IMG/VR virus record: IMGVR_UViG_3300037424_001630
Coordinates: 13,533-77,532 of that record
Length of the DNA stretch: 64,000 bases
Reading direction: 5' to 3' (one strand)
From: a virus
Taxonomy: Duplodnaviria > Caudoviricetes
How positions within the stretch are numbered: position 1 is the first letter of the stretch; each line of letters opens with the position of its first letter. The position numbers and the translations under genes are program-made. A model generated the notes under the pieces. It saw only the letters and a program-made list of their open reading frames with translations, was not told the origin of the DNA and made no database searches. Of this stretch, positions 3,583 to 30,470 are shown one piece after another.

Positions 3583-3884
3583 GGGGGACTGTGAGGAAGG
3601 GGTACCGGAGGGTCCTGAGCGTCACGCTCAAGGACTGCCGCGTGGACACGTTCCGCGCCGGCGGGTCCGGCGGGCAGAACCAGAACAAGGTCAGCTCGGG
3701 CGTGCGCGTGGTCCACGAGCCCTCCGGCGCCGTGGGCGAGGCGCGAGACACGCGCGACCAGATCCACAACAAGCGCGCCGCCTTCCGTCGGATGGCGACG
3801 TCGCCCGAGTTCCAGGCGTGGGCGCGGGTCGAGGCCATGACGCTGCCGGAGGACATCCTCGTCGAGGTGGGGGTCGGGCCGTGA
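3579..3884 (+). CDS. minimal RF-1-domain (GGQ) peptidyl-tRNA hydrolase-like protein
   Basis: FRAGGSGGQNQNKVSSGVRVVHEPSG...RDQIHNKRAAF is the class I release factor GGQ domain. Confidence 0.9.
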   Translation: MRGTVRKGYRRVLSVTLKDCRVDTFRAGGSGGQNQNKVSSGVRVVHEPSGAVGEARDTRDQIHNKRAAFRRMATSPEFQAWARVEAMTLPEDILVEVGVGP

Positions 3885-6800
3885 CATCGTTCGCCGTCCG
3901 CCTGAAGCCGCGCATGCCCCCGCGCGCGCCCGTCGCCCTGGCTTCCCGGGACAGGGTCGTCTACGAGAAGTACGCGCCGGACCAGCCTCGAGACGACCGC
4001 GGGCGCTGGACCGAGGGCGGGGGTGGGACGCTGTTTCACGGGACGTCGGCGCCAGGCTTCAGGCGCTTCCGCCCCGGCGTCGCGTACCTCGCGCCCTCCG
4101 GCGCCGAGGCGGGGATCTACGCCACGAGCCCCGTCCTCTCGAAGCCGGGCGGGGAGCCCCGCGTCCTCGAGGTCCGCGCCGCGCCCGGCCGCTCGAAGGA
4201 CGTCAACGCGCGGGTCGAGGACGCGGTGATGGGCGACGAGGACGTCGACGAGGTCGTCGGGACCCTGGCGGCGACCGCGCGCTCCGAGGGGTTTCGGTAC
4301 ATCAGCTTCGAGCACCCCGGCGGCGGGGAGGACTACATCACGGTCCGGGTCAGTCTGTACCCGGACGAGGACCTGAGGATCCTCAGGACGCACCGCGCGG
4401 TCGAGAAGTACGACGAGTCGGAGCACCCCAGGGACGAGTCGGGGAGGTGGATCTCCGGTGGAGGAGGTGGTTCTCGCGCAGACGTCGCCGCCGCGATGAA
4501 GGCGGGCCTGCCGCACGTGGACGAGCTCGGGCCGGCCGCGAGCTACGTGCTCCCCGACGGGACCATTCTCGGGCGCACCATGGACAACCCCACTCACAGC
4601 GCCCTCGCCGCGCGCTTCATCCCAGACGAGGCGGGGTGGGGTCCCGAGGAGAAGTGGAACCCGGAGGGGGAGAACAGGGTCGTCGGGGAGATCATGCGCC
4701 GCTCCGGCGCCGTGCGAGTGGTCTACTCGAACGAGATCGCGGTGGGCGTCTCCGGTCCGTTGTCGCCGGCGCAGGCGCGTCTTTTTATCGGGGAGGCGCG
4801 CGCCGCGGGCATGCCGCTCATCGTGGACGTGTACCGAAAGGACGGCGGGACGGACGGCGAGATATTTGCGCGCCCCACGGTCGACGAGGTGAACGCCTGG
4901 ATCGCTCGGCAGGTGGGCGTCAGCAAGGCGTACGACGAGTCGGAGCACCCCAGGGACGAGGACGGGAAGTGGGTTGTTGACCCCGCAGGGATAGGCGCGT
5001 CTCTGGATGAGGCGGGGCGGTCGACCGCGTCGCACGAGGCGCGAGTCTCTGCCGCTTTAGATGCCTTGCCCGCGGGGTACGAGATCAAGGCGGGCAAGCG
5101 GACGTACACCCACACGCTCGTCGGATCTGACAAGTTCTGGATCGATGACAGGGGGAAGGGCTACGCGGCTCGAGACGTGTATCTCGAGGTCGGCAGTCGG
5201 CGGCTCATCCCCCACATCGGCGCAGAGGCGCTCGGTCAGGGTGAGGTCAGCAAGGCGGTGACCCACGACGGCGTCATGGTGGCGCTCAGGCTGCCCCCTG
5301 CAGCCGCTGGGCGCCTCGCCCTGGGCACTTCGGGGGCTGAGGCGGCCGAGGACCTCCACGTCACCCTCGTCTACCTGGGCGACTCCGACGAGCTCGACCC
5401 GAACGCCCTCGGGCGACTGCACGACGGCCTGTCGGCCCTCGCCGCGCGGACGCCACCCGTCAGCGGGCGCGTGACCGGGTACGGGCGGTTCACGAACGAC
5501 GAGGAGGACGTGCTCTGGGCGGGCCTGGACGCGCCGGACCTGGCCGAGCTGCGCCACGAGGTACTCCAGGAGGCGCGGGGCGCTGGCCTCGAGCCCGCGG
5601 GGGACCACGGGTGGACGCCCCACGTCACGCTGGCGTACGTAGAGCCCGGCGCGGGGGAGGACGCGGCGCCCCCCGACGTACCCGTGACCTTCAGGTACCT
5701 CAGCGTGGTCTCCGGTGGGCGCGAGGTCGCCCTGCGGCTGGCCGGCGCCGAGGACGAGGGCGGCGCCCAGAGGGCGCTCCCTCCGGAGACGTTCAGCGAG
5801 CTCCAGAGGTCGGACTCCGGCACCTTCTACTCCGTCGAGGCGCTCGAGGAGTGGGCGCGGGGGAGGGGCGACGTGCTGGTGCGCGCCGACGTGCTGGGCC
5901 CCGCCGCCGTGGTCGTGAAGAAGGGCGCTGGCGTGAGTGTGGGCGTCGAGGGGATGGAGGAGGGCGACGAGGCGCACCTGGAGGACCTGGTCGCCGCCAT
6001 GGGGCGGATCGCGCACGACTACGTCATGAGCGGGCGGATCGTCGCCCGGAGCCTGTCGGGGCGCTGGCTCCGGCCGGACGAGTTGGGCGGCGTGCTGTCG
6101 GGTCGCGCCTTGGCGTCCCCCGTCTTCTTCCCTGACGACCTGCTGGTCATGGACGGCGACCTGACCGACCGGCCCGCCGTCGAGCGCTGGGAGCTGCTGC
6201 GCGCCCTGGTGCCGGAGGCGGGCGGGTCCGCGGTCGTGCCCAAGCAGGTGCTCTGCGGGGCGGACCAGGACCTCGAGGCGGCCGTCGAGTCGTGTCTGGC
6301 GTGGCGCCCTAGCGAGGGGGTCGGGCTGGTCGTCTCGGGGGCGACGTGCGTCGCCGCGCGCAGCGCGTACTCGCACGGGCTGACGGGCGACGTGGCGCGC
6401 CTGGAGCGCGAGCCCGCGGTCAAGGGGAATGCGGAGACGGGGTTCATCCTGCCCGACGGGCGCATCCGGCGGGTGAACCCGAACACCGAGGGCGACCACC
6501 AGACGGCCGCCCAGCGCATGGGGTACGAGGGTCCGGACGAGGTGCACAGCGCCCTCGCCGCCGGGCTCGTCCGGTACAGCTCGTCCCCCGAGTCCGACTG
6601 GAGCCGGCGCCCCGTGGTCGCCTTACACTTCATGGAGGGGAACGAGATCGGCAGGGCGAGCGCCGAGAGGTACGTCGAGGGTCACCAGGGCGTCTCGGCG
6701 TACTTCGTAGACACCGAGGACCCGAAGACGGGGCACATCGTGAGCTCCGGTCGGTTCACCCCCGCGAAGGCGCTCGAGCATGTCCGGCGCCCGAGCCGCA

Positions 6801-8047
6801 CCGGCATAGTCGTGGACCGCCCCACGCCCTGGACGACGCCCCCGCGCGGGCCAGGCGCGCAGCCCCGCGTGCCGGCGGGGTCGCCCGAGGGCGGGCAGTG
6901 GGCTGAGAAGTACGAGGAGGGCGAGCACCCCAGGGACGAGTCGGGTAGGTGGACGGAGAGCGGCGGGGGAGCTTCGGTATCGCGGCACGCCGCGGCGGCG
7001 AAGACGGCCACTGAGTACCTCGACAGCGTGGACGCGGGCGAGGTGAAGATGGTAGACGCCCACAACGCGGCGTGGATCACCCCGGACGGGCGCCTGTACG
7101 GGAAGTTCGTGGATCACTACGAGTCGGCGGAGCACATCCTGGGTCTCCTCGGCGAGAGCAAGACCGACAGCTGGCTCACCGAGCGCATGCTGGCGGCGAC
7201 CGGCTTCATACGGTTCGGCATGACGGGTGACGAGGTGGACGTGGAGGTGGTGGGCGCGCCGACGGCGGCGCAGGTCTCCGCCCTCCAGGACGTCATCAGG
7301 AAGCACCGCCCGGAGCGGTTCGTGTACGACATATCGAGGGAAGCCACCGGGCGCGGCGCCGTAACCGGCGAGGGCTGGGGACACTTCCTCGAGGACGTCG
7401 GCGTGCGCAAGGACTACGACGAGGCGGAGCATCCCAGGGACGAGTCCGGGAGGTGGACGGGCGCCGGCGGGGGCGGGCGCATGTCGTCGCCCGTCAGGAA
7501 GGTCATGGAGGCCGCGGAGCGGAAGTACGAGAGCGCCAGCGCCGAGTACGCGTTCATAGCCGACAAGGACGGGAACGTCCTGTTGCGGGACAAGACGTCG
7601 GGTGCTCCGAACTATGTTAGATTCACCGAGGGGGAAGTCTCCCGGATACGCAGCAGCCCCGGCGCCGTGTTCACGCATAACCACCCGGCGGGGCGGAGCC
7701 TGAGCTTGGACGATGTGCGCCTGGCGAGGAATATGCTTCTCAGTGAGATACGCGCATCCACCTCGACGTCGGTGTTCTCCATGCGCCCGGGCCCGGCCGG
7801 TTGGCCGCCGTACACCCGAGGGTTGCCGGACCCGGCGAACCCTAGCATCCGGGGGTACGACGTGGACACGCTCATAGGGTGGTACACGGACTTCGACAAG
7901 CAGGTGTTCGACGATTTCACCGCGAGAATCAAGGCGGCGACGATGACCGTTGACGAAGCCTCCGCGAAGCACCATGATGAGGTGTGGCGGCGCCTCGTCG
8001 CCGCTCACCCGGAGCACCTGGTGTACAGCGAGGAGGACCGCTACTGA
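3881..8047 (+). CDS. polyvalent protein 1 (~1388 aa): ART-like, 3x PDG-H domain, 2H phosphoesterase, degenerate ligase, JAB-like
   Basis: GTG 3881 overlaps previous stop; 5 PRD tags + 1 QPRVPAG tag; FHGT; HVTL...PHVTL; THNHP..S..D. Confidence 0.88.
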   Translation: MTSFAVRLKPRMPPRAPVALASRDRVVYEKYAPDQPRDDRGRWTEGGGGTLFHGTSAPGFRRFRPGVAYLAPSGAEAGIYATSPVLSKPGGEPRVLEVRAAPGRSKDVNARVEDAVMGDEDVDEVVGTLAATARSEGFRYISFEHPGGGEDYITVRVSLYPDEDLRILRTHRAVEKYDESEHPRDESGRWISGGGGGSRADVAAAMKAGLPHVDELGPAASYVLPDGTILGRTMDNPTHSALAARFIPDEAGWGPEEKWNPEGENRVVGEIMRRSGAVRVVYSNEIAVGVSGPLSPAQARLFIGEARAAGMPLIVDVYRKDGGTDGEIFARPTVDEVNAWIARQVGVSKAYDESEHPRDEDGKWVVDPAGIGASLDEAGRSTASHEARVSAALDALPAGYEIKAGKRTYTHTLVGSDKFWIDDRGKGYAARDVYLEVGSRRLIPHIGAEALGQGEVSKAVTHDGVMVALRLPPAAAGRLALGTSGAEAAEDLHVTLVYLGDSDELDPNALGRLHDGLSALAARTPPVSGRVTGYGRFTNDEEDVLWAGLDAPDLAELRHEVLQEARGAGLEPAGDHGWTPHVTLAYVEPGAGEDAAPPDVPVTFRYLSVVSGGREVALRLAGAEDEGGAQRALPPETFSELQRSDSGTFYSVEALEEWARGRGDVLVRADVLGPAAVVVKKGAGVSVGVEGMEEGDEAHLEDLVAAMGRIAHDYVMSGRIVARSLSGRWLRPDELGGVLSGRALASPVFFPDDLLVMDGDLTDRPAVERWELLRALVPEAGGSAVVPKQVLCGADQDLEAAVESCLAWRPSEGVGLVVSGATCVAARSAYSHGLTGDVARLEREPAVKGNAETGFILPDGRIRRVNPNTEGDHQTAAQRMGYEGPDEVHSALAAGLVRYSSSPESDWSRRPVVALHFMEGNEIGRASAERYVEGHQGVSAYFVDTEDPKTGHIVSSGRFTPAKALEHVRRPSRTGIVVDRPTPWTTPPRGPGAQPRVPAGSPEGGQWAEKYEEGEHPRDESGRWTESGGGASVSRHAAAAKTATEYLDSVDAGEVKMVDAHNAAWITPDGRLYGKFVDHYESAEHILGLLGESKTDSWLTERMLAATGFIRFGMTGDEVDVEVVGAPTAAQVSALQDVIRKHRPERFVYDISREATGRGAVTGEGWGHFLEDVGVRKDYDEAEHPRDESGRWTGAGGGGRMSSPVRKVMEAAERKYESASAEYAFIADKDGNVLLRDKTSGAPNYVRFTEGEVSRIRSSPGAVFTHNHPAGRSLSLDDVRLARNMLLSEIRASTSTSVFSMRPGPAGWPPYTRGLPDPANPSIRGYDVDTLIGWYTDFDKQVFDDFTARIKAATMTVDEASAKHHDEVWRRLVAAHPEHLVYSEEDRY

Positions 8048-8916
8048 TGGCGCCGCAGACGGCTGACGGCGGCTGGCTGCTCGACGACCGCGAGGCGCCG
8101 CGCTATGGGCTCGGCGTCGAGAAGGCGTTCGATGAGAGCGAGCACCCTCGAGACGAGCAGGGCCAGTGGACCGAGGGCGGTCCGGCGGCGGGGGTCAAGC
8201 GCCTCAAGCTTGCCGACGACGCCGTCGCCGCTGTCGGGGGCACGCCGGGCGCGAAGATCACCGAGGACGGCATCGAGGTCGACGTCTCCCGCTACCAGGA
8301 CCCCGGGCAGTCCGGCGAGCTGTCCGTGCGCACGGGCGTCTTCTTCCTGCCTGAGCACAAGTCGCCGTGGGGGCGCCACTATACGGGGAAGCCCGCCGAG
8401 TCGGGGGGATACGGCGGCACCATGAAGATCGAGGGGCGCGTGACGCTGCGGAACCCGTTCGTGGTGCGGGCGAGCACCGGCGGGAACGCGGTGGTGAAGG
8501 CGTACGACGCGGTCGAGGGGAAGGGCGCGTATGAGAGGATGCGGACGGACGTGTTGCAGCACGCGATGCCCCGCTTGTGGGGGGAGCAAGCTCGCGGTTC
8601 GTCTGACGACCTCGAGCGGAGAGTGCGCGGCGTCCTGGAAAAGTACGGCGGCGAGCCGGGGATGGCCGCCGCGATCATCGAGCACAGCGGGAAGGGCAAC
8701 CTGCACGCGTACGCGATCCAGGAGCACATCGCCGCGCACGCGCTGAGGAAGGCGGGCTACGACTCCGTGCTGGGGTACTCGAAGCACAAGGGGCAGCCGC
8801 GCCTGGCCGAGGTGTTCGACCTCACGCAGACGCACTACCCGGACCCGTTCAAGAAGGGGTGGGCGGAGAAGGCGATCGACCCGGCCGAGTGGACCGCGGA
8901 GGAGGAGATCATCTGA
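8047..8916 (+). CDS. polyvalent protein 2 (~289 aa): ART-PolyVal-like domain
   Basis: TGATG coupling at 8045-8049; VEK+PRD tag; GVFF...YG...VTLRNPFVV...AGYDSV pattern. Confidence 0.75.
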   Translation: MAPQTADGGWLLDDREAPRYGLGVEKAFDESEHPRDEQGQWTEGGPAAGVKRLKLADDAVAAVGGTPGAKITEDGIEVDVSRYQDPGQSGELSVRTGVFFLPEHKSPWGRHYTGKPAESGGYGGTMKIEGRVTLRNPFVVRASTGGNAVVKAYDAVEGKGAYERMRTDVLQHAMPRLWGEQARGSSDDLERRVRGVLEKYGGEPGMAAAIIEHSGKGNLHAYAIQEHIAAHALRKAGYDSVLGYSKHKGQPRLAEVFDLTQTHYPDPFKKGWAEKAIDPAEWTAEEEII

Positions 8917-11900
8917 TGGCGCCGGCGCGCGCGACCGCGAAGGGTCGAAAGCTCGACTTCCGCACCGAGTTCCAGGGGATCCCGGTCAGCGTCGAGACGC
9001 GCCGGGGTGCGCTCCGCCACTGGCACGACCCGCTGACCGGGCGCGACGGGGCGACGAAGATGCCCCACCACTACGGGTACATCCTCCTGACCGAGGGCGC
9101 CGACGGGGACCACGTCGACTGCTTCGTCGGCCCGGTCGAGGACGCGGCGAGCGCCTACGTCGTGCGGCAGAACGACCCGAAGACGGGGGAGTACGACGAG
9201 GACAAGGTCATGCTCGGCTTCGCCAGCGTCGCGGACGCGAAGGCGGCGTACCTGGCGTCGCGCGACGACGGTTCGAGGGCTTTCGGCTCGATCGTCCCCA
9301 TGCCGATGGAGCGGTTCAAGCAGCGTGTCCTGGAGGCCCGCGGCGGTCCCGTGAGGAAGTACGACGAGGCGGAGCACCCCAGGGACGAGCAGGGACAGTG
9401 GACCGAGTCAGGAGGCGCGTCGTCGGACGACTTCACGGACGCGAAGAGCGACATCGACGACGCGGACGGTCCGGCGCGGATACAGGCAGCGCTCTCGCAC
9501 TACGGCGCGCGCCCGCTCAAGATCAGGGGCGAGGCAGTGCCGAACCTGTACGTCACATCGGACCTCGTCGTGGAGTGGAACGGCGCGGACCGCTTCGCGT
9601 CAGTGTACGAGAAGGCGGAGTGGGTCGACCGGACCGACCCCGAGGACTTCTACCCGGACTATCAAGACCAGTTCAACGACGACTTCTGGGCGTCCGGCGG
9701 CGAGGTGTACCACGCCACCGACGAGGAGAACGCGGCGGGGATCGAGAGCGACGGCATCGAGGCGAGCAGCCGGACGCGCGGGCTCTCCAACCGCGGGGTG
9801 GGAGCCGCGGTGTTCACGACGAGTGACGTGGAGGAGACGGAGCTGGGGTCGTACGGTCCGGCCGTCTTCAAGATTGACGTAGCCGCGATGGCTCGCGACG
9901 GCGTGAAGCCGTACGCCTCACAGGAGCCCGACGTGGTGGCGTACGAGCTGAAGGGCGCCCTGGCGGCGGCCGTCGAGCTGGACGACTACTCGCCGGAGGA
10001 GCCGGAGTCGGGCATGTCGGTCCACACCGTCATTCTGGGCGGGAGCGTCCCAGCGAAGTACGTGAGCCGCCTCGAATCGGGCAAGGCGTACCACGCGAAG
10101 CGCGCGAGGTTCAACCCCAATCGGATCGTCGAGAAGTACGACGAGAGCGAGCACCCGCGGGACGAGTCGGGGAGGTGGACCGAGGGCGGAGGCGGAGGTG
10201 GGACCGCGGTCACTGACGACCCCGAGGCGAGCGCCGAGCGCTGGGCGAAGGAGCTCGGCGCGACGTGGAACGGCGTCCAGGAGGGCGCGGACGGCAAGCC
10301 GAAGTACGCGATGATGACGGAGGGGCGCACGCACTCCACCGCCGCGGTCCCGCTCGAGGGCATAACTCGCGACAAAGTCGCGACGAAGTTGCGACAGGTC
10401 CGCGAGCGCTTCGGCCTGACGGAGGAGCGAGACGTCATTGAGCGCCCCGCCGAGGAGGGCGAGGAGGGCGACGTCGTGCTCCGGGTGGGGCGGACCCACG
10501 TGTACATCGGCGACTATCCCGTTCCGGGGAGCGGGCCTGCGGCGGAAGATCCCACGCGGCCGGGCAAAGCGGCGAACGTCTCCATCGCCCGGCACAGCCC
10601 CACGCCCGATTGGATGGGGTACGACAAGGAGCCCGACCCCGTCGAGACTCGCCGCGCCCTGGTCGGGAGCGTGAAGTGGCTGCGGGAGCACGGCTACACG
10701 TACCTGACCGCGGTCGCCGTCAACCCCGGCGTTCACTCGCTCCTCGAGCGCCTGGGCGCCACGAAGGAGCCCGGCACGGGGCGCCAGTGGCTCCCGCTGT
10801 CCGCGATCCGCAAGGCGGTGTGGGACGAGGTGGAGAAGGACGTCTTCGGCACGTCCGGCACCGCCGGCATCCTCGCGCCGGAGCAGGGCGTGTTCAGGAA
10901 GCCGCGGCGTTCGCGTCCCGCGAACAAGGCGGAGGGGATAGGCATCCCGCTGACGGTCGCCAAGTCGCAGCGGGTGGACGCCGGGTTCGTCACCGCGGAC
11001 GGGACCGTGCTGCGCATGGATCCCGATATGGAACACGAGGACTTCCTCAAGTCGCTGCCCGCCGCGCAGCGTCCCGCTGGCACTCGTCCTGGGCGCGACA
11101 TGATCCTCGAGGCTCATCGAGCCGGGTGGGTGCGCTGGTCCCAGTTCAGGTACGCCTCGACGCGCCCGACGCTCATGCTGAGCTTCGCGGCGGGGAACCC
11201 CGCGGGCGCCGAGAACGCGAGGAAGTTGATCGCGCAGCGCCCCGCGATGGGGAAGTACGTCGTCGACGCCGAGGACGTCCATTCCGGGGGCGGTCCGGTG
11301 TCGTCGAGGGTGTTCGAGTCGAGTGCGGACGCTATGGTTCACGTGGTGGCCATCGGTGGTGCCGGTGGAGGCGGGGCATTCGACGAGTCGGAGCACCCTC
11401 GGGACGAGGAGGGGAAGTGGGTCGACAAGGACCGCGACGGGGACAGCTTCTCGGTCGGTCCCGGCGTCGTGGGGGGGCACCGTTTCGTGGTCGGGCGCCT
11501 CGAGGGCGGGAGGATCGTCGAGGACAAGGAGCACCCGCGGGTCAACCCCTACGAGGCGATCTTCCAGCGCCGCGGCGCCCGCGTCGGCGGCTCCGTCGAG
11601 AAGTACAGCGCGGACCAGCCTCGAGACGAGCAGGGCCAGTGGTCCGGCTCATCGAGCGCGACACGGAACGACCCGAACGGGTGGCTGAAGCCGGCGACCG
11701 GGGATCTGCTGCAGAACGAGGGGCGCATGCACGTCGAGCACGCGCACGACCTCGGCTTTAGCGGCGGCCCCGAGATGCTGGACGAGGGGTACGTGCGCGT
11801 GACCGCGGAGCGGGACGCCTCGGGGAGTAGGCGACCTATTTTTGGGCTACACTTCCGGGACGGCAACGCCGCCGCGATAGCGGGCGCTCGATCGTTTGTG

Positions 11901-14705
11901 GAGCGGTACGCGGGCGGGCGGTGGTATCGCTTCGACGTGGAGCGGAAGGGTGGAGAATCGAAGAGCTATGCCGCTGCGACACAGCAGGAAGCGCTCGACT
12001 ACCTGGACGGCAAGGTCGGGAAGGCCAAGGTCGAGAAGGCGTACGACGAGTCGCTCCACCCGCGCGACGAGTCGGGCAGGTGGAGCGAGGGCGGCGGGGC
12101 TGCGGTGGAGCATATCAGGGCCGGCGTCGCGAGCGCGGTCGAGGCGGTCCCGGGCAGGGCGGCGCACGGGCGCACGGCGGAGAACGCGTTCGTCCTGACC
12201 CGCGACGGCAAGGTGTACGCCTGGAACAGGCAGGGCGAGATCGCGGACCGGCGCGAGGTGACGACCGTTCACAGCCATTCCGCCGACTCGGGACACGACC
12301 CCGCCACTCTGGAGGACTTCCAACCCCTCAACTCGAGGGACATCAAGAGCTTCCTCCAGGACACCGGGGCGCGCACCGACGCCATCATCATGGCGGACGG
12401 GCGCCTGGAGTTGCTGCACAAGCGGAACGACCCGGCGTTGTACGTGAAGCTGGGGAAGCGAACCAAGTGGCTCGACGCGACCCTGCATCCGACGTATCAG
12501 GAGCGCCAGGCGTACTACGAGCAGCACAAGGACGAACCCGGCTACAGCATGTACAATCAGGAGCGTGAGCGGCTGAGCGCCTTCGCGGCGGCGCACGGGC
12601 TGGACTACCACGACGACCTCCGATGGCGCGGCGTCGAGAAGGCGTACGAGGAGAGCGAGCACCCCAGGGACGAGTCGGGTAGGTGGACGGACGCGGGCGG
12701 ATCCGCGAGCGGCGCGACCGACGTTGAATGGCGCGGGTGGACCGAGCGACCCGAGGGGGACTACGCGAACCCCGAGCAGGATAGGTACGTCGAGAACGTC
12801 GCGCACCTGTCGGGGTGGAACGGGCAGGTCGTCACGCGGGCGGGCAACGGCCCGAAGTTCACGGTCGGCGGGAAGGAGTTCATCGAGGGCGGACACTACG
12901 ACCCGCGGACGGACCAGGTCGTGATCTACATAGACAAGGAGCCGCGCGAGGGCGCCGAGCAGATCGCGGTGCACGAGGCGTCCCACGGGCTGTGGCACGC
13001 GGCGAAGCCGGAGCTCGACAAGCAGCTCGACGCCGTGAGGGACATCGCCACCGCCGCGGCCGGGGGGGTGCCTCCTCCGCCAGGTCTGACGCCGAAGGAG
13101 ACGAAGAACTGGCCGTACCTCAGCCCGGCGGACGATCGGATACACCCGCTGCTGAAGGAGAAGTACCCGCTCGCCTACGCGTACCGGGAGCTGATGGAGA
13201 GCGAGTGGGTCGCCACGGGGAAGCGCGTCTCCCCCTACGCGGCTGCCTGGTGGGCCGCCCACGAGGCCGGGGACGCGGCATCCATGCCGGCGGTCAACGA
13301 GACGCTCGCGGAGATCAGCGCGCAGACGAGGAGGTGGGGCCTCGACACGTTCGACTCCCCCATGTTCAAGGAGTGGAAGGCGTTCCACCACGAGGTCATG
13401 AAGGCCGGCCGCGCCCACGTCGCGCCCCCCGTCACCACGGCGGCGTCGAAGGCCGCGGAGAGAGTCGTCGTGATCGGCCCGGACGGGCGCGGCGAGGTGC
13501 ACGAGGCTGACGGTACGGTGCGGTGGCTGCGCCCCGCGCCCGTCGAGAAGGACTACGACGAGGCGGAGCACCCCAGGGACGAGCAGGGACAGTGGACCGA
13601 CGCCGGCGGCGGGGCGGCGTCCGCGGGTGCGGGCGGAGCCCTCGGGGAGCGGGGGGGCACGTTCGAGTCCCGGAGTGCGTACGAAGCCCTCCAGCGCTCG
13701 ACCCACGCGGCGTGGGCTCGGAGGGGGGCGGCCCTCGACGCCGCGGCGAAGGCGAAGAACCGCTTCGAGGCGGCCGGGCACATCGCGACCGCGGGGCTCG
13801 CGGCGCGCGACGAGCTGAACGAGGTCATCGCTCAATATGGGATCCAAGCCGGGCAGGCGACGCTTCTGCCGAACAGGGCGGCGGTCCAGGCGACCATGCT
13901 GCTCAACGAGCACGACGCCCTGAGCAGCGCGGCGAGGACGGTCGACGACAAGTCGGTGCGGAACTGGCGGGCGAGCCTGCGGGAGTACTACCGCGAGCCG
14001 TATCTGGACTTCGGGAACTCCCGGACCGACGGGAAGGGGTACGAACGCGTCGCGTCCGGCAGCGGGTACTACTCGACCGGCGCCGTGGAGTGGGCTGGCG
14101 GCGGTGCGAACCCCGAGTCGCCGTCGTGGACGGACGAGGAGCTGGCCGACATCGCGCAGGACCTAAAGGGGCTCCCCCCGATCGACGACGTCCGCCCGCT
14201 CGTGCTCTTGACGACTTTCATGTCCCTCGACCAGGCGGGATCGCGCGGCGGATCTGAAATGCCGGAGTATACTGGGATCATCACGATACAGGCGTCGTCG
14301 CGCGCCGAGGACGCCAGGCAGACGGTGCTCCACGAGTTCGGCCACGAGGCGGTGTACTCGGCTATCCGCGGGTACGGGAGGCGGAGCGACGCCGGCAAGT
14401 GGGACGACCCGAACTACACGCCCGGCGACGCGGTTCGGGCCTTCGAGAAGGACCACGCCGCCCTGGCGGCCAGCCCGGACCGAGCGCAGCGCTTCCGCAT
14501 GGACACCGGCGGGGGGCGCTCGTGGGGCGGGCCGGAGGAGTTGTTCGCCGAGGACTTCGCGACGGCGTTCAGCGGTCGACCGACGAACCGCTTCGGCAAG
14601 GAGAGCGTGGGGAACGTGGAGGCTCTGACGCCGGAGGAGCGCGAGAAGTTCAAGGCGTGGATCGTCGCCGCTACCGCTAGCTCGCCGCGCCCGACGAGGG
14701 AATGA
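8916..14705 (+). CDS. polyvalent protein 3 (~1929 aa): inorganic pyrophosphatase, ART-like, GNAT-like, 2x PDG-H domain, JAB-like, 2x zincin
   Basis: TGATG coupling; HYGYI..TEGADGDHVDCFVGP...DEDKVMLGF; YHAT; HSHS; HEASH; HEFGH...EELFAE; 7 PRD tags. Confidence 0.9.
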   Translation: MAPARATAKGRKLDFRTEFQGIPVSVETRRGALRHWHDPLTGRDGATKMPHHYGYILLTEGADGDHVDCFVGPVEDAASAYVVRQNDPKTGEYDEDKVMLGFASVADAKAAYLASRDDGSRAFGSIVPMPMERFKQRVLEARGGPVRKYDEAEHPRDEQGQWTESGGASSDDFTDAKSDIDDADGPARIQAALSHYGARPLKIRGEAVPNLYVTSDLVVEWNGADRFASVYEKAEWVDRTDPEDFYPDYQDQFNDDFWASGGEVYHATDEENAAGIESDGIEASSRTRGLSNRGVGAAVFTTSDVEETELGSYGPAVFKIDVAAMARDGVKPYASQEPDVVAYELKGALAAAVELDDYSPEEPESGMSVHTVILGGSVPAKYVSRLESGKAYHAKRARFNPNRIVEKYDESEHPRDESGRWTEGGGGGGTAVTDDPEASAERWAKELGATWNGVQEGADGKPKYAMMTEGRTHSTAAVPLEGITRDKVATKLRQVRERFGLTEERDVIERPAEEGEEGDVVLRVGRTHVYIGDYPVPGSGPAAEDPTRPGKAANVSIARHSPTPDWMGYDKEPDPVETRRALVGSVKWLREHGYTYLTAVAVNPGVHSLLERLGATKEPGTGRQWLPLSAIRKAVWDEVEKDVFGTSGTAGILAPEQGVFRKPRRSRPANKAEGIGIPLTVAKSQRVDAGFVTADGTVLRMDPDMEHEDFLKSLPAAQRPAGTRPGRDMILEAHRAGWVRWSQFRYASTRPTLMLSFAAGNPAGAENARKLIAQRPAMGKYVVDAEDVHSGGGPVSSRVFESSADAMVHVVAIGGAGGGGAFDESEHPRDEEGKWVDKDRDGDSFSVGPGVVGGHRFVVGRLEGGRIVEDKEHPRVNPYEAIFQRRGARVGGSVEKYSADQPRDEQGQWSGSSSATRNDPNGWLKPATGDLLQNEGRMHVEHAHDLGFSGGPEMLDEGYVRVTAERDASGSRRPIFGLHFRDGNAAAIAGARSFVERYAGGRWYRFDVERKGGESKSYAAATQQEALDYLDGKVGKAKVEKAYDESLHPRDESGRWSEGGGAAVEHIRAGVASAVEAVPGRAAHGRTAENAFVLTRDGKVYAWNRQGEIADRREVTTVHSHSADSGHDPATLEDFQPLNSRDIKSFLQDTGARTDAIIMADGRLELLHKRNDPALYVKLGKRTKWLDATLHPTYQERQAYYEQHKDEPGYSMYNQERERLSAFAAAHGLDYHDDLRWRGVEKAYEESEHPRDESGRWTDAGGSASGATDVEWRGWTERPEGDYANPEQDRYVENVAHLSGWNGQVVTRAGNGPKFTVGGKEFIEGGHYDPRTDQVVIYIDKEPREGAEQIAVHEASHGLWHAAKPELDKQLDAVRDIATAAAGGVPPPPGLTPKETKNWPYLSPADDRIHPLLKEKYPLAYAYRELMESEWVATGKRVSPYAAAWWAAHEAGDAASMPAVNETLAEISAQTRRWGLDTFDSPMFKEWKAFHHEVMKAGRAHVAPPVTTAASKAAERVVVIGPDGRGEVHEADGTVRWLRPAPVEKDYDEAEHPRDEQGQWTDAGGGAASAGAGGALGERGGTFESRSAYEALQRSTHAAWARRGAALDAAAKAKNRFEAAGHIATAGLAARDELNEVIAQYGIQAGQATLLPNRAAVQATMLLNEHDALSSAARTVDDKSVRNWRASLREYYREPYLDFGNSRTDGKGYERVASGSGYYSTGAVEWAGGGANPESPSWTDEELADIAQDLKGLPPIDDVRPLVLLTTFMSLDQAGSRGGSEMPEYTGIITIQASSRAEDARQTVLHEFGHEAVYSAIRGYGRRSDAGKWDDPNYTPGDAVRAFEKDHAALAASPDRAQRFRMDTGGGRSWGGPEELFAEDFATAFSGRPTNRFGKESVGNVEALTPEEREKFKAWIVAATASSPRPTRE

Positions 14706-16711
14706 TGGAGATCAGCTCACAGGCCGTCGTGTTTGACTCCCGCAACCGGGCGCTTCTCTACCTGGTGGAGCGGGGGCGCAGTCCCGACGTGATGGGCAAG
14801 TGGTCCGTCGGCTGGGCCGCTCCGCGTTCGTTCGCCCCCCTCGCCCCGGAGCGCGAGTACGCGATGCTCCACCCCGACGGTGCCGGTCGGCGCATCTTCG
14901 CCCTCCGCTCCCGCGTGGCGAAGGAGTACGTCGAGTCCGAGCATCCCCGGGACGAGGACGGGAAGTGGACGGACGCCGGCGGCGCCCCGCACGCGGGTGA
15001 CCCCGAAGCCATGCGGGTCGTCCAGGCGGAGCTCGGCTGGCGCCCCGAGGTGCGGGACGAGGAGGGTCAGAAGGACGTCGAGATGCTGCACCGCCTCGTC
15101 GAGGAGCGAAAGGCCGCGGTCCCGCGCATGGACGCGCTGTCGAAGACGCTGGAGGGGGAGGAGGTCTCCGGACATGTAGCGCAGAACTGGGACAGCTTGA
15201 GCAGCTCGGCGCAGGCGGAAGCCGAGCAAGCATGGAAGGAAGGCAACTACTCCAGCTCCTATGAAGCCGAGGTGGAGAGCTGGAGGGAGGGGCTCCCCTC
15301 CGAGATCGAGGAGGCGATGTCCCTGACTCGCGACGACTGGCGGTATGAGGGCCTGAAGGAGGCCCTCACGGACTACGGGTTCACCGCGGAGTCGGTGGAC
15401 GCCACGATCAAGGAGTATGACCCGAGGGCGATGGACGCGGCGGACTGGAACAAGGCTATCAAGGAGGAGTACATAGCCGGGCGCCTGGTCCACGTCGATG
15501 ACGCGCCAGCCAATTTCCTCGCGGGCGGTGATGATCCGGAGAAGCAGCCCGAGCTGCCTGGCGTCCCGCCGCCGACCCCGGAGGAGATCGCGGCCTATCG
15601 CGAGCGCCAGCGGGCGCGCATGACGCGGGAGTGGGACAGCGAGACGCACGCCGTCACGGCCGACGTCAATAAGGCGTGGGAGGAGGAGGTCCAGAGGCGC
15701 ATCGACCACGAAGATCCGCCTGACTACCTCGAGGAGTCCGTGCACGAGTTCCTGGACGACCAGTGGTCCCAGATGAGCGACGAGGACAAGTACGCTGAGG
15801 CCCCCGACAGCTCGAAGGAGGACGGTGCGGGCGACGAGGCTGGGATCGTCCGCATGCCGAAGAATGTCAAGACGATCGCCGACGGCGAGGACTACGAGAA
15901 GACGAGGCTGCTCCTGCGCTCGATGGTCAACTCTCGCGCCGCTGAGCTGTTCAAGGAGAGGGGGATAGACGCGGACCCGCAGGCGGTCGCGGACGAGCTG
16001 TGGGAGGGGTGGAAGGGGTCGTCTGGCAACCCGATCGGGTCCCTGCTCCGCCGGGCGATCAAGGAGGAGTTCGGTACGTGGGATGCGGGTCGAGGCGCGC
16101 CTCCCGGAGGGCTGAGCATTTCGGGATCCGACGTGAGGATGGACCCGCAGGACGCGATGAAAGTGGCGAAGGCGTACGTGCGGGCGCAGTGGGAGGCGAC
16201 GCAGTGGGCGCTCGCGAACACGAAGGACGAGAAGGGCGGGAAGCTCGGCGGCATGCTCCTGTACCGTGGTCTGATGAGACCCGGAGATGAGGTGGCGGAT
16301 AGCGGCATGTCCGTTCCCGGGGAGAGCTCGTCGGGACATCCGGTGACGTACCGCCGTGTGTACACGAAATCGTCCGGGAAGGCGCTGTCGGCCAACGCGC
16401 TGCAGTCCTTCACCACGAAGTCGACGCTCGCGAATAGCTGGAACGGAGTGAACGTAGAGCCCATGGCGACGCCGACCCGAGTGGTGGTGCGCGCCCTGGT
16501 CCCGAATGAGGCGATCTTCTCCCTGCCCGCCTACGGGAAGAACATCCACGAGGAGCAGGAGGTTGTCGTCATGGGCGCCCCGCTGGAGGCGTGGGACGCC
16601 TGGTACACCCTCGCGCCGACCGGCGGGAATATACCGTTCCCCCGCACCCGCCGTACCGGGGTGTCCGCGCTCGGCAGGACTTTCGCGGAGAAGGGGATAG
16701 GTACGACATGA
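14702..16711 (+). CDS. polyvalent protein 4 (669 aa): acidic helical region + C-terminal R-S-E ADP-ribosyltransferase
   Basis: ATGA overlap; VAK+PRD tag; LYRG...LQSFTT...EEQEVVV. Confidence 0.85.
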   Translation: MMEISSQAVVFDSRNRALLYLVERGRSPDVMGKWSVGWAAPRSFAPLAPEREYAMLHPDGAGRRIFALRSRVAKEYVESEHPRDEDGKWTDAGGAPHAGDPEAMRVVQAELGWRPEVRDEEGQKDVEMLHRLVEERKAAVPRMDALSKTLEGEEVSGHVAQNWDSLSSSAQAEAEQAWKEGNYSSSYEAEVESWREGLPSEIEEAMSLTRDDWRYEGLKEALTDYGFTAESVDATIKEYDPRAMDAADWNKAIKEEYIAGRLVHVDDAPANFLAGGDDPEKQPELPGVPPPTPEEIAAYRERQRARMTREWDSETHAVTADVNKAWEEEVQRRIDHEDPPDYLEESVHEFLDDQWSQMSDEDKYAEAPDSSKEDGAGDEAGIVRMPKNVKTIADGEDYEKTRLLLRSMVNSRAAELFKERGIDADPQAVADELWEGWKGSSGNPIGSLLRRAIKEEFGTWDAGRGAPPGGLSISGSDVRMDPQDAMKVAKAYVRAQWEATQWALANTKDEKGGKLGGMLLYRGLMRPGDEVADSGMSVPGESSSGHPVTYRRVYTKSSGKALSANALQSFTTKSTLANSWNGVNVEPMATPTRVVVRALVPNEAIFSLPAYGKNIHEEQEVVVMGAPLEAWDAWYTLAPTGGNIPFPRTRRTGVSALGRTFAEKGIGTT

Positions 16712-18327
16712 CAGACTTCGCCTTCGACTTCGACCAAGGCAACAGCCCGGGCGCCCCCCACTGGCTCGCCGGCGGGAGGATGCGCCGGACCAGGGAGGAG
16801 ACCCGCGCTGAAACGCGCCGACGCTGGAAGGCGAAGCGCGCCGAGCTCGAGGCGGACCCCGGCGCTGACCTGAGGTTCGGCGACACGTTCGACGCCCTCG
16901 TGAAGGTCGCCAAGTCCGGCGACGTGGTCGCTGTGGACTTCGACGGGACGTGCACGGTCGACGCCGACGGCACCGAGAACCCGCGCATGCGCACGCTCGT
17001 GCAGCACCTCGTGGGGCGCGGCGTCCCCGTCGTGGTCTTCACGGCGCGCCCCGCCGAGGAGGTGCGAGAGTGGCTCCGCACTCACGGCTGGCCCACCGGC
17101 GCGGTGACGAACGTCAAGAGCCCGGACTTCCGAGTCATGCTCGACGACCGGGCGGTGCACTTCGACCCGGCGATGCTCGCCGACCCGGACCTCGCCGACG
17201 AGCTGGTCGGCTTCAAGTCGTGGTGGGAGAAGGGCGAGGACACGCCGCTGTACCTCACCGAGAAGGACATGGTCGAGAAGGTCTGGGACGTCGAGAAGTA
17301 CAGCGCGGACCAGCCTCGAGACGAGGACGGGCGCTGGACGTCCGGAGGCGGCGGGGTGGACGTCTCCGCCCGCACCGTGGAGACCGACGACGTAGAGGAG
17401 GCCGCCCGCGCGCTGGGCGAGGGGCGCCGGGTCGTCCTCAGCCAGCCGCGCCAGGTGTCGACCTTGCTGGATCGTCTCGCCGAGAAGGCGAGGGAGGCCG
17501 AGGCGAAGGGCGAGCAGGCGCCGAAGTACGACCTGTGCAACGTGTCGGTGAAGGGGACGAACATCTTCTGCGCTGGCGGCCTGGGTATCAAGCGCCTCCA
17601 GATGCCGCAGCTCTCCGGGAAGCCGACGCCGGGCTCGCCGGCGGATGGGCTCCCGAAGAACGCGAAGGGCGAGGTCGACATCGGTCCCGCGTTCCTCGAG
17701 AGCCTCCGCAATGAGGGCGTCGGGGTGAAGACGGAGACCGAGGAGCCGGGGCACCTTCGCGCGTCGCAGGCGGAGCTGAACGGCGTGAAGGTCGCGGGGA
17801 TCATGGGCTTCCTTCGCTCGAATCCGGACAAGGTCGCCCGCGCGGAGCCGCTCTTCGTCAGCCGGGACAACTACATCGTGGACGGGCACCACCGCTGGGC
17901 GGCGACCGTCGGGCTCGACTACGCGTCCGACTCCGACGCGGAGATTAGCGTCCCCATTCACCGCGTCGACATGTCCATCACGGAGCTGCTCAAGCGGTCG
18001 CGCGACTTCGCCGAGAAGCACGGGCTCCCCCCGATGGGGTTCAAGCGGAAGGCGACGGGGTGCGGGTGCGAGGGCCTGCCCGCGTGGTCGCCCGCGGCGG
18101 AAGAGGCGGAGGAGGTACCCGCGGAGGTGTCGCCGCCGCGGATAGATCAGGTGGCTGTCGCGCTCGAGCGCGCCATAGGGGCGCTCCCGGGCGCCGTCGC
18201 CGCGGCGCTGGGGGTGGGCGGTCCGCAGGTGGCGCCGGAGCCGAGGGCGCCCCGCAAGGTGAGGAAGACGGTCGTGCGGGACGAGAACCACCGCATCCTG
18301 TACGTGGACGAGGAGGAGATCGACTGA
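16708..18327 (+). CDS. polyvalent protein 5 (~539 aa): HAD phosphatase + ParB/Srx-like domain
   Basis: ATGA overlap; AVDFDGT...VFTAR...LDDRA (HAD motifs I, II, IV); VEK+PRD tag; VSRDNYIVDGHHRWAA. Confidence 0.85.
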   Translation: MTDFAFDFDQGNSPGAPHWLAGGRMRRTREETRAETRRRWKAKRAELEADPGADLRFGDTFDALVKVAKSGDVVAVDFDGTCTVDADGTENPRMRTLVQHLVGRGVPVVVFTARPAEEVREWLRTHGWPTGAVTNVKSPDFRVMLDDRAVHFDPAMLADPDLADELVGFKSWWEKGEDTPLYLTEKDMVEKVWDVEKYSADQPRDEDGRWTSGGGGVDVSARTVETDDVEEAARALGEGRRVVLSQPRQVSTLLDRLAEKAREAEAKGEQAPKYDLCNVSVKGTNIFCAGGLGIKRLQMPQLSGKPTPGSPADGLPKNAKGEVDIGPAFLESLRNEGVGVKTETEEPGHLRASQAELNGVKVAGIMGFLRSNPDKVARAEPLFVSRDNYIVDGHHRWAATVGLDYASDSDAEISVPIHRVDMSITELLKRSRDFAEKHGLPPMGFKRKATGCGCEGLPAWSPAAEEAEEVPAEVSPPRIDQVAVALERAIGALPGAVAAALGVGGPQVAPEPRAPRKVRKTVVRDENHRILYVDEEEID

Positions 18328-27393: not shown

Positions 27394-28731
27394 ATGGGAA
27401 CCGAAGCGAGGGCGGTTAGCGTAGAGCGCTCGGAGTGGTCCGCGGCCAAGATCAACGACCTGCCCGACAGCTCGTTCGCGTACATAGAGCCCGGCGGGCG
27501 CAAGGACGACCAGGGTAAGACGGTGCCTCGTTCGCTGCGGCACCTCCCGTACAAGGACGAGGGCGGGGCGGTCGACCTGGACCACCTCCGCGCTGCGCTC
27601 TCGCGCGTGTCGCAGACGGACCTCCCCAAGGCGACCCAGGCGAGGGTGCGCGCGAGGCTCGAGGCAGCGGCGGCAGAGCGCGGCGTGGGAGAGCACGAGA
27701 AGGGCGCCGTCGAGAAGTACATAACCCACGAAGGGGGCAAGTGGCAGGTGCGCGCGGAGAGCGGCAAGATCCTCGGTACGCACGACAGCAAGGGGGACGC
27801 GGTCCGCCAGCTGGCCGCCGTCGAGGCGAACAAGGACCCGAAGGGGAAGTCCGTCGCCTTCTCCTCCGCCAAGTTTAAGGCGGAGAACCCGGGCAGCGAG
27901 GTCCAGACACTCATCTTCGGCAAGGACAAGTACCCGAAGGCGTCGGAGGCGAAGGCGTGGGCGAGCGACCACGGGTTCGAGTCAGGCGACGTCGAGGAGA
28001 CCGGCGAGAGCTTCCGGCTCCTCCAGAGGGCCCCCGACAAGTACGCGCGCATGCGGACCATCGAGATGACGGAGGGCGTGCAGGCGGTCATCGGCTTCCC
28101 GAAGAAGTCGCTCGAGGCCGTCAAGTCTCTGTTCCTTCGGAGCGTCGAGAGCCTGCTCCCCGCGCTCAAGGCCGCCGACCTGTACCGGGCGGAGTTCGAG
28201 CCGGTCGAGGAGACGGAGGCCGGGACGGTCTACCGCGTCAAGTGCGCTGGCCGGGACTTCCACTTCGCCGAGAAGAACGGGAGCGCGGCGCCCGTCCCCT
28301 CGTACGCGGCGCTCAAGCTCCTGCGAAAGCGGGCCTTCGTGCCGGTCGTCAAGAGCGAGGAGAAGCGGTACACGCTTGGGGTGTGCTACCCCGCATCGAA
28401 GGTCGGCAAGCCCGAGCCGGACTTCCACGGCGACGTGATGGGCGAGGACGAGCTCGAGAAGAGCGCCTGGGGCTTCATGGCGAAGGGCGCCGACCGGATC
28501 GGGCTCATGCACAGGCCGGGCACCGCCGGCGCGGGGCGGGTGGTGGAGAGCTACATCTACCGGGGACCGTCCTACAAGGTGAAGGACGTCAGTGGCGCGG
28601 AGCAGGAGATCAGCCCCGGAGACTGGATGCTCGGTGTGGTGTGGAACGACGAGGGGTGGCAGGCGATCAAGAGCGGGAACCTCACCGGGTACTCGCTCCA
28701 GGGCGCCGCGCGGAAGGAGGCCGTAGCATGA
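27394..28731 (+). CDS. prohead maturation protease, XkdF-like (Peptidase_S78_2) with N-terminal accessory domains
   Basis: EEKRYTLGVCY...PDFHGDVMGEDELEKSAWGFM...IGLMH...VVESY...GDWMLGV...GNLTGYS; N-terminal INDLPDSSFAYIEPGG domain. Confidence 0.9.
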   Translation: MGTEARAVSVERSEWSAAKINDLPDSSFAYIEPGGRKDDQGKTVPRSLRHLPYKDEGGAVDLDHLRAALSRVSQTDLPKATQARVRARLEAAAAERGVGEHEKGAVEKYITHEGGKWQVRAESGKILGTHDSKGDAVRQLAAVEANKDPKGKSVAFSSAKFKAENPGSEVQTLIFGKDKYPKASEAKAWASDHGFESGDVEETGESFRLLQRAPDKYARMRTIEMTEGVQAVIGFPKKSLEAVKSLFLRSVESLLPALKAADLYRAEFEPVEETEAGTVYRVKCAGRDFHFAEKNGSAAPVPSYAALKLLRKRAFVPVVKSEEKRYTLGVCYPASKVGKPEPDFHGDVMGEDELEKSAWGFMAKGADRIGLMHRPGTAGAGRVVESYIYRGPSYKVKDVSGAEQEISPGDWMLGVVWNDEGWQAIKSGNLTGYSLQGAARKEAVA

Positions 28732-29657: not shown

Positions 29658-30470
29658 ATGGCAAAGGCTCAGGAGCTCAAGGACCTCGACGTTGATCGCG
29701 TGGACGGCGTCGACAAGCCCGCCACGGGTCGCAACTTCCTCCTCTTCAAGAGCGAGGACGGCGACGCCATCATGAAGGGCTACGGCGCCGTCGCGACCGC
29801 GGCCCACATCGTCCTCGAGAAGGTCCGCAAGGACTCGAAGGCCGTCGTGAGCCGGAAGAGCGCCATCGCTCTCAACGGCCTCGCTCAGGTCCTCGGTGAG
29901 GGCGCCGTGTTCGTCGGCAAGTCAGTCCCCACCCAGCCGTACATGCTCACCGAGCCCGACGTCAACGCCCGCGGTCCCGCGGACGAGAAGCTCGGCCCCA
30001 ACTTCACCGCCAAGGCCGGCCCCGGCAGCATGGTCGGCAGCGTCCAGTTCAGCGTGGAGGACGCCGACGGCGTCGCCAAGGCGTGGCCGCCCGCCGACGA
30101 CGAGAAGGAGAAGGAGCCCGAAGAGGACGACATGATGAACGGGAAGCAGAAGCCCAACCCGTTCGCCAAGAAGGGGCTCGAGAACTTCGGCGACAAGAAG
30201 GCGGCGCCCTTCAAGTCGGAGGACGGCTCCGAGGGCATCGTCCGGAGCATGGAGGCCATGGCGAAGGCCATGGAGGCGCTCCCCGGCCAGATCGTGAAGG
30301 CCCTGGTCGCCGGTCCGGTGCAGAAGGACGCGGGTGACGAGCCGGCCGAGCCGGTGCGCCCGAGGTCCCGGCAGATCGAGGAGGACGAGCCCGTGCGGGT
30401 GAGGAAGTCCGGCGGGTACGAGCCGCGCATGGGAGTGTCCTTCGCGGACATCGCGTTCGGCAAGCGGTAG
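29658..30470 (+). CDS. capsid scaffolding protein (XkdF-like N-terminus)
   Basis: ELKDLDVDRVDGVDKPATGRNFLLFKS; many x-x-K sites; precedes MCP. Confidence 0.8.
   Translation: MAKAQELKDLDVDRVDGVDKPATGRNFLLFKSEDGDAIMKGYGAVATAAHIVLEKVRKDSKAVVSRKSAIALNGLAQVLGEGAVFVGKSVPTQPYMLTEPDVNARGPADEKLGPNFTAKAGPGSMVGSVQFSVEDADGVAKAWPPADDEKEKEPEEDDMMNGKQKPNPFAKKGLENFGDKKAAPFKSEDGSEGIVRSMEAMAKAMEALPGQIVKALVAGPVQKDAGDEPAEPVRPRSRQIEEDEPVRVRKSGGYEPRMGVSFADIAFGKR

Follow-up and report, generated by a model that had tools for sequence, protein, structure and literature searches.

A border tag of phage polyvalent proteins whose preceding basic residue tracks the S78-superfamily head protease across viral contigs

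Positions 3881-18327 of a 64-kb stretch of viral DNA (the window; bases 13533-77532 of the 77.5-kb IMG/VR virus record IMGVR_UViG_3300037424_001630) hold five coupled open reading frames (ORF1 to ORF5), which encode long strings of unrelated modules. Within these chains a short peptide with the core P-R-D-x-x-G-x-W, here called the tag, recurs at module borders. In the contigs compared, a lysine or arginine placed just before the tag tracks the presence of a head protease of the S78 superfamily, a relationship that is new here. The selection and processing of phage-injected proteins are known for few models, such as T4, P1, P22 and giant phages. The present locus is among the richest examples of an unnamed header peptide found in at least 1,200 protein clusters, and the covariation, by tying one tag position to a protease family, yields a concrete prediction instead of a vague 'linker'. 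If it holds, it offers a sequence rule by which anti-defence enzymes delivered with the virion could be recognized in metagenomes, a means of reading the specificity of the protease and a natural tag for the loading of capsid cargo.

The basic residue before the tag and the head protease family

Tags were collected in two independent pattern scans of IMG/VR (124 contigs), and the whole contigs were searched with the profiles PF14550 and PF04586. Either an XkdF-type (PF14550, S78_2) or an HK97-type (PF04586, S78) domain was counted as an S78-superfamily head protease, and genomes of at least 75% completeness were regarded as near-complete. In the first sample, contigs with K or R at position -1 or -2, counted back from the aromatic residue that opens the tag, stood to contigs without as 35:2 where an S78 or S78_2 protease was encoded and as 1:7 in near-complete genomes lacking one (p=6e-6). 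The second sample replicated this with ratios of 25:3 and 1:6 (p=3e-4). Both samples together give 60:5 with protease versus 2:13 without (Fisher p=2.5e-9), and counting on 90 blastn sequence clusters gives 35:3 versus 2:13 (p=6e-8). The association persists for positions -1 to -3 and for lysine alone, and GC content, which is equal in both groups (0.605 and 0.607), does not explain it.

Within a contig, the residue at -1 is as constant as the tag core (identity of 0.82, compared with 0.27 between contigs), while identity at -2 to -4 is merely 0.17-0.26. Among representative proteins with at least three tags, 80 of 97 are nearly all-basic or nearly all-non-basic. Among 139 cases with K or R at -1, 89 have V, I or L at the putative P3 position. 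The expectation that a lysine precedes the tag in other phages as well was borne out in part: it is not universal (K at -1 in 44% and at -2 in 12%, first sample), but the exceptions are not random and follow the protease. For comparison, in the HK97 gp5 record K103 stands before S104 (TFNK-SLGS), at the bond reportedly cut in maturation (Duda et al. 1995).

A tie of the tag to XkdF-type proteases in particular, which the preliminary description of this locus had anticipated, was not found. Of the 141 contigs searched, PF14550 was detected in 30, HK97-type S78 is no less frequent, and at least 13 tag-bearing genomes of 75% completeness or more have neither family. The presence of tags in 13 near-complete S78-less genomes suggests that the core is independent of the protease. 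In five S78-less tag-bearing genomes neither an S77 nor a Mu-like protease was detected (0/5), with control genomes giving no signal either, and S49 was found in one of the five; ClpP was found in none of 16 contigs.

Out of 1.84 billion, 1,209 representative proteins matched a profile of the 15 tags of the window (E<=0.001); they contain as many as 10 tags and reach 3,849 amino acids (aa) in length. These representatives all share P, R, D, G and W, although their codons differ and the GC content ranges from 0.37 to 0.71. The exact form E-H-P-R-D is rare (21 IMG/VR contigs), while Q-P-R-D is common. The tag is located at module borders of large proteins near phage head genes, and modules and tags are reshuffled between phages. 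The tag region matches phrog_15528 ('portal protein') near its C-terminus (positions 626-679 of 794). No Pfam or NCBIfam model covers the tag, and term searches of PMC5512222 (Iyer 2017) and PMC5576092 (Jamet 2017) turned up no description of an inter-domain or junction peptide. A tblastn search with the 23-aa tag gave no match, the query being too short for the size of the database. With the MuF part of the tagged MuF protein described below, only MuF domains of cultured phages were matched; the MuF-2H-protease fusion of Streptomyces phage YDN12 is without tags. A megablast search of 14 kb against cultured phages gave no match.

Anatomy of the tags, the array and the head genes

The tag core occurs in 15 copies, all within ORF1 to ORF5 and none elsewhere in six frames of the 64 kb, where about 0.06 copies would be expected by chance (a rough estimate of our own); the fifteen tags with glycine linker that had been described from the sequence are thereby confirmed. 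All 15 fit an aromatic residue, P-R-D, x-x-G-[RKQ]-[WF] and a Gly/Ser-rich linker, with P, R, D, G and W invariant. The full unit can be written as h-x-K (h, hydrophobic), an optional A, D or E, [YF]-x3-4-[HQ]-P-R-D-[ED]-x-G-[RKQ]-W and a Gly-rich linker, and two subtypes, YDESEHPRD and KYSADQPRD, are found in the array. V/A/Y-x-K lies ahead of 14 of the 15 tags, with V at P3 in 12 of the 14. These 14 had been described as directly following x-x-K, which is accurate for eight, where K is at -1; in six it is at -2 (K-A/D/E-Y), and in tag 9 it is absent. The tags, with the residues preceding them, are:

Tag 1, 3956..4009, + strand: VVYEK-YAPDQPRDDRGRW
Tag 2, 4397..4450, + strand: AVEK-YDESEHPRDESGRW
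Tag 3, 4919..4972, + strand: VSKA-YDESEHPRDEDGKW
Tag 4, 6899..6952, + strand: WAEK-YEEGEHPRDESGRW
Tag 5, 7403..7456, + strand: VRKD-YDEAEHPRDESGRW
Tag 6, 8116..8169, + strand: VEKA-FDESEHPRDEQGQW
Tag 7, 9348..9401, + strand: PVRK-YDEAEHPRDEQGQW
Tag 8, 10125..10178, + strand: IVEK-YDESEHPRDESGRW
Tag 9, 11367..11420, + strand: GGGA-FDESEHPRDEEGKW; follows a Gly run, the sole tag without a preceding K
Tag 10, 11589..11642, + strand: SVEK-YSADQPRDEQGQW
Tag 11, 12030..12083, + strand: VEKA-YDESLHPRDESGRW
Tag 12, 12633..12686, + strand: VEKA-YEESEHPRDESGRW
Tag 13, 13542..13595, + strand: VEKD-YDEAEHPRDEQGQW
Tag 14, 14915..14968, + strand: VAKE-YVESEHPRDEDGKW
Tag 15, 17284..17337, + strand: DVEK-YSADQPRDEDGRW

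Two further tags are situated in an 842-aa MuF protein (G000:7175-9703), 4 kb upstream of the window, which combines a MuF domain (PF04233) with a RadC/JAB-like module, a paralogue of the one at the end of ORF1. Together with this protein, the array comprises about 5,700 residues of modules and 17 tag copies. Two other functions considered for the tag were rejected. Internal initiation driven by GGAGG within the tags is contradicted by the frequency of this sequence throughout the array (75 in 14.4 kb, 11 of them within tags), and for a self-cleavage resembling that of FlhB (NPTH) at [DN]-P of the wider tag, most tags here read Y-D-E-S and are without D/N-P.

The array itself consists of the following reading frames:

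ORF1, 3881..8047, + strand: polyvalent protein of 1388 aa with 5 tags; leader, M1a, M1b, a 645-aa multi-domain block with 2H, domain X and a RadC/JAB-like module
ORF2, 8047..8916, + strand: 289 aa; a 26-aa leader, one tag and a 248-aa module without known-family match
ORF3, 8916..14705, + strand: 1929 aa with 7 tags; inorganic pyrophosphatase (InPase), an ART/Tpt1-like module, two copies of domain X, a JAB-like module and two HExxH modules
ORF4, 14702..16711, + strand: 669 aa; a 75-aa N-terminal piece, one tag and a 580-aa module without known-family match
ORF5, 16708..18327, + strand: 539 aa; a HAD-like module, one tag and a ParB-like (DGHHR) module

The coupling of the five frames, as it had been read from the sequence, is confirmed by overlapping stop and start codons, which at the starts of ORF1 to ORF5 are, in order, GTGA, TGATG, TGATG, ATGA and ATGA. 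The coupled chain extends further in both directions, to an RF-1-domain gene upstream, whose stop is overlapped by the GTG start of ORF1 at 3881 (GTGA), and to a methyltransferase gene downstream. The former (3579-3884) encodes an ArfB/ICT1-like protein of 101 aa with a GGQ motif (PF00472, E=2e-16), which may serve as a ribosome-rescue factor for very long ORFs with rare codons; the latter, a sixth coupled ORF (18327-18977), encodes a CmcI/rhamnosyl O-methyltransferase (PF04989, E=1e-40). The junctions at 8047, 8916 and 18327 share the near-identical sequence GAGGAGGAG-ATC-xxC-TGATG-SCG-CC, and the C-termini encoded there are acidic (EEDRY, EEEII and EEEID).

Among the modules, 2H (E=6e-16) and inorganic pyrophosphatase (E=2e-35) are the sole ones with solid Pfam support. 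The zincin (HEASH, HEFGHE), RadC-type JAB (HNHPxG..S..D, twice) and ParB (DGHHR) assignments are motif-level calls from the translations, and the matches of the HAD (E=0.009) and ART/Tpt1-like (E=0.018) modules to Pfam are weak; most modules gave no family match. By Pfam, motifs and weak matches taken together, the chains fall within the range of 2-15 unrelated effector domains that characterizes polyvalent proteins. They also lie beside virion genes, with protease, scaffold and major capsid protein (MCP) downstream and a MuF domain in the upstream tagged protein.

A recurrent module of about 130 aa, domain X, is marked by a GF[IV]xxDG strand and is present in five paralogous copies, of which three are preceded by a tag and two by h-x-K without a tag; neither Pfam nor the ESM Atlas gave an assignment for it. 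Its copies and the untagged borders are:

Domain X copies: 4451-4915, 6425-6907, 6953-7405, 10776-11378 and 11643-12044
5246..5254, + strand: untagged V-S-K border, 6 residues before the first 2H strand
6416..6424 (ORF1 aa 846-848), + strand: untagged A-V-K border, preceding a domain X copy
10956..10964, + strand: untagged V-A-K border, preceding a domain X copy, 8 residues before the GF[IV]xxDG strand

Of the lysines proposed to mark untagged borders, those of V-S-K and A-V-K are conserved in homologues. The former is kept as L-F-K, L-L-K and L-A-K in P0212, P0213 and P0215, and the latter as L-A-K and T-R-K in P0212 and P0213, where homology stops after the K and different modules follow. 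V-P-K of ORF1, in contrast, is not conserved and thus probably no border signal. In an AlphaFold2 (AF2) model of ORF1 residues 365-1009, which was built from 5 sequences with a mean predicted local distance difference test score (pLDDT) of 46 and is usable for the 2H part only, V-S-K is found in a low-confidence stretch preceding strand 100-106.

Two types of leader end in h-x-K, followed by either a tag or a domain. The first, R-L-K-P-R-x-P-x-R...h-x-K, is about 30 aa long and forms the start of ORF1 (3899-3970); it is also present in P0086, P0095, P0129, P0212 and P0213. The R-L-K-P-R element precedes a tag or a 2H domain, and since it is seen at internal as well as N-terminal positions, it resembles a second type of border or leader ending in K. 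The second type, at the start of ORF2 (8047-8124), reads M-(A)-P-x-T-x-[DN]-G-G-W-[LIV]-L-D (M-x-P-x-T-x-D-G-G-W-L-L-D) and is shared with P0007, P0158 and P0035, which are two tagged proteins and one orthologue of the XkdF ORF. The strict form MPET.DGGW was found in IMG/VR in five small ORFs, three complete (36-57 aa) and two cut by the end of the locus. This type of leader may be a head-targeting leader.

The array is located 9-12 kb upstream of the head genes:

27394..28731, + strand: predicted head protease precursor, 445 aa, with an XkdF-type S78_2 domain at aa 323-441
29658..30470, + strand: putative scaffold-like K-rich protein, 270 aa, between protease and MCP
30533..31525, + strand: MCP, 330 aa; phrog_1623 (E=1.9e-67), phrog_10

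The XkdF domain matches PF14550 with E=1.3e-18 and 67.6 bits, against a curated cut-off of 24, and among 52 homologues S434 is invariant and H345 nearly so. Its position just upstream of scaffold and MCP fits the role of a prohead maturation protease. The AF2 model of the protease ORF has a mean pLDDT of 87 and displays four confident domains. V-E-K (aa 106-108, 27709-27717) is positioned between the disordered residues 100-106 (pLDDT <50) and strand 109-113, and V-V-K (aa 318-320, 28345-28353) in a low-confidence block (residues 311-320, pLDDT 56) ahead of the protease domain, so that two of the three V-x-K sites fall into predicted inter-domain linkers. In orthologues, G-V-E-K recurs before differing N-terminal modules. 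A Foldseek search with the whole 445-aa multi-domain model against the PDB gave nothing below E=0.001. In contig L065 (IMGVR_UViG_3300036761_002433), an 833-aa ORF carries the XkdF domain (aa 432-558) between tags at 417 and 569, which suggests that in some phages the protease itself is a tagged cargo module.

The x-x-K motifs that had been pointed out in MCP, scaffold and protease are not more numerous than chance would give: [VLIA]-x-K occurs 15 times in the XkdF ORF, 11 times in the scaffold and 5 times in the MCP, against 11.2, 7.9 and 3.2 expected. LEK of the MCP carries no information, the first 8 residues being conserved to the same degree as the remainder (two relatives, about 90% identical throughout). 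The scaffold-like protein has conserved ends and a variable middle among its relatives, and a GGGAGG ribosome-binding site lies upstream of the MCP start.

The source record has a GC content of about 69% and a CheckV completeness estimate of 76%, with almost all genes on the + strand. Between the array and the head genes are a 519-aa Ala/Thr/Gly-rich protein of fibre-like appearance with repeated L-T-T-A-S-[ST]-P-T-F (21036-22595) and a 429-aa phrog_1645 'virion structural protein' (23055-24344). A 230-aa protein (24357-25049) contains about 8 tandem units of 14-15 aa, G-[VI]-P-[VI]-E-S-L-x-G-x-x-R-[RK]-x, with weak, sub-threshold family matches. Upstream of the window, G000:1-7268 encodes an S-adenosylmethionine (SAM) methyltransferase, two glycosyltransferase-like proteins and a 648-aa DNA methylase (DPPYG); this modification-gene block directly precedes the MuF gene, where a portal would be expected.

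A possible two-part border signal and its alternatives

The explanation we favour, to which as a whole we give an even chance, is that ORF1 to ORF5 and the MuF protein are capsid-bound polyvalent chains with a two-part signal at their borders, which are cut by the phage's own protease. The chains would be phage-type polyvalent proteins composed of anti-host and housekeeping modules and bound for the capsid interior; that the array is virion cargo is, taken by itself, likely. A link to the capsid is indicated by the MuF domain of one tagged protein, by the match of the tag region to phrog_15528, by the head genes downstream and by the proteomic detection of phi24B gp47, which shows that polyvalent proteins can be components of the virion. 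The first part of the signal would be h-x-K, here mostly V-E-K, acting as the P3-P1 site of the XkdF-type S78-superfamily head protease. A cut after x-x-K had been proposed before and gains indirect support from the tracking of K/R with the S78 protease; for this phage, cleavage at h-x-K by the XkdF protease appears about evenly poised between true and false on the sequence comparisons. Further points in its favour are the constancy of -1 within contigs, the V, I or L at P3, K103 of HK97 gp5, the linker positions of V-E-K and V-V-K in the protease ORF, G-V-E-K in its orthologues, the conserved untagged borders, the leader ends and the XkdF domain that is itself a tagged module in L065. The second part, the conserved core with its Gly-rich linker, would probably serve a purpose of its own for which the protease is not needed, for example in loading the capsid or in ejection. 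Most likely it would be a handle, which either recruits the chain into the assembling head or leads the released module out with the DNA. After a cut the core would stay at the new N-terminus, where it might conceivably act in ejection.

Loading into the prohead would come first, via MuF, the core or the leaders, and the protease would then cut the chains into about 15-20 modules. A prohead protease acts on contents that the prohead already encloses, so that cutting can only follow loading, and the earlier idea that the tag becomes a packaging signal after cleavage had to be abandoned. The protease would probably also trim itself and two N-terminal leaders at the same h-x-K motif.

A wider generalization, which we put forward tentatively and consider rather doubtful, is a 'cut-and-carry' grammar shared by tailed phages, in which the header (aromatic...PRD-x-x-G-[RK]-[WF]) marks each module of head cargo and the preceding residue is tuned to the phage's own protease (K/R with S78-type enzymes, different residues with others). 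If this were true, sequence would suffice to tell what thousands of uncultured phages carry in their virions and how specific their proteases are, and capsids could be designed to take up foreign proteins.

Several points weigh against the favoured explanation. The statistics behind the 60:5 versus 2:13 contrast ignore deep phylogeny, the -1/-2 rule was set on the first sample before it was replicated in the second, and absence of a protease depends on the sensitivity of hidden Markov models and on CheckV completeness estimates. Contigs L118 and L183 are basic without a protease, L030 and L222 non-basic with one, and some 'non-basic' proteins have R or K at -3 or -4 (RAA-Y, KAG-F), which indicates that the register varies. 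Neither portal nor terminase was recognized in the 77.5-kb, 76%-complete contig, so that the head-module context is incomplete, and tblastn on cultured phages found no cultured, proteomically studied phage bearing the tag. Moreover, the lysine may be part of a binding epitope and not a scissile site, and transfer without cutting is described for N4 virion RNA polymerase and for some polyvalent proteins of conjugative elements (Iyer 2017, PMC5512222).

These last points lead to an alternative which we consider unlikely, namely that the tag is a capsid-loading or partner-binding peptide, that the chains stay intact in the virion like N4 virion RNA polymerase, and that K/R, instead of marking a scissile bond, is part of an epitope that binds an S78-type protease or its scaffold, with which the chain would enter the prohead. 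Some packaged polyvalent proteins do remain uncut according to the same source, and the 2811-aa polyvalent protein gp47 of phi24B, detected in virions by proteomics (bioRxiv 10.64898/2026.04.10.717836), is described as a single very large virion protein. The presence of the tag core without any S78-family protease would be accommodated as well, and the covariation would reflect a functional link with the protease, not cleavage as such. However, h-x-K is also found without the tag core: it marks borders that have no tag, the ends of leaders and linkers within the protease ORF. The interchange of K and R together with the hydrophobic P3 resembles the subsite pattern of a protease, and ORF boundaries occur at equivalent places, as if separate modules were acceptable.

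Processing of the chains by their own peptidase modules, the two HExxH zincins and the RadC/JAB-like domains, before packaging or after injection and with no part played by the head protease, seems improbable. Modules with HEASH and HEFGHE are indeed present, as are two JAB-like modules with HNHPxG, zincin autoprocessing is predicted for polyvalent proteins with reference to P1 DdrB (Iyer 2017, PMC5512222), and tags are found in phages without an S78 protease. Nevertheless, the zincin and JAB calls are by motif without Pfam support, and neither the presence of K/R just where an S78-type protease is encoded nor V-x-K in the linkers of the protease ORF would be explained.

At the DNA level, AGG/CGA, which are rare Arg codons, account for 17 of 24 Arg codons in the tags and for 20% elsewhere (p=2e-7), and GGA/GGT Gly codons are enriched in the linkers; this bias may be a trace of gene conversion among the tags or be connected with pauses of translation where modules meet. 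Exact identity of at least 20 nt, with a maximum of 47 nt, is found in 14 of 105 tag pairs, and recombination at tags probably helps to shuffle modules. That the tag is chiefly an evolutionary joint for swap, duplication or deletion of modules by homologous recombination, with no signalling role in the protein, is nonetheless very improbable. The codon bias, the shared identities and the reshuffling between phages would suit it, but identical-codon use between tags (0.69) is what codon bias predicts (0.67), so that it is the peptide which is under selection. What is conserved is the protein sequence, down to the invariant P, R, D, G and W of the 1,209 representatives, and covariation with a protease family would not be expected of a joint that acts purely as DNA.

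Comparison with known systems

The closest parallels to the chains proposed here are the phage-type polyvalent proteins (PMC5512222), which combine many unrelated effector domains per chain (2H, InPase, zincin, ParB-like, JAB and ART-like), are encoded beside virion genes, are linked to MuF and are predicted to be packaged and injected, with processing suspected. In PMC5512222, zincin modules are proposed as the processing enzymes, whereas the present chains are distinguished by a conserved border tag and a putative cut-site residue that tracks the head protease family.

The capsid-targeting sequence (CTS) of T4, which together with gp21 handles IPI-III and Alt, follows a similar logic. However, the T4 signal is N-terminal, precedes the cut and is removed, whereas the tag core follows the putative cut and would stay on the product, with many signals per chain instead of one per protein. 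In addition, the T4 protease belongs to S77 and has E at P1 (cut after L/I-x-E), as opposed to an XkdF-type S78_2 protease and K here. The tag is thus not a T4-type CTS: it is internal and lies after the putative cut, and the protease recognized is S78_2 (S77 PF03420 was not searched here).

In giant phages (phiKZ, 201phi2-1 and SPN3US gp245; PMC10052503) numerous proteins of the head and the ejection apparatus are substrates of a prohead protease, and release of propeptides by cuts at the short motif A-x-E has been shown by semi-specific mass spectrometry (PMC10052503). These are separate proteins with N-terminal propeptides instead of polyproteins of many modules, and both motif and protease family differ from those considered here. 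HK97 gp4 (Peptidase S78) is of the same superfamily as the XkdF domain. HK97, however, is not known to have polyvalent proteins or tags, and gp4 is known to act on the capsid delta domain and on itself. Finally, in MuF- or portal-fused effectors and MuF polymorphic toxins (Jamet et al. 2017, PMC5576092) cargo rides on head proteins. The MuF protein of this phage, with two tags and a JAB-like cargo module, is of this kind, whereas most of the cargo is carried on separate chains without MuF.

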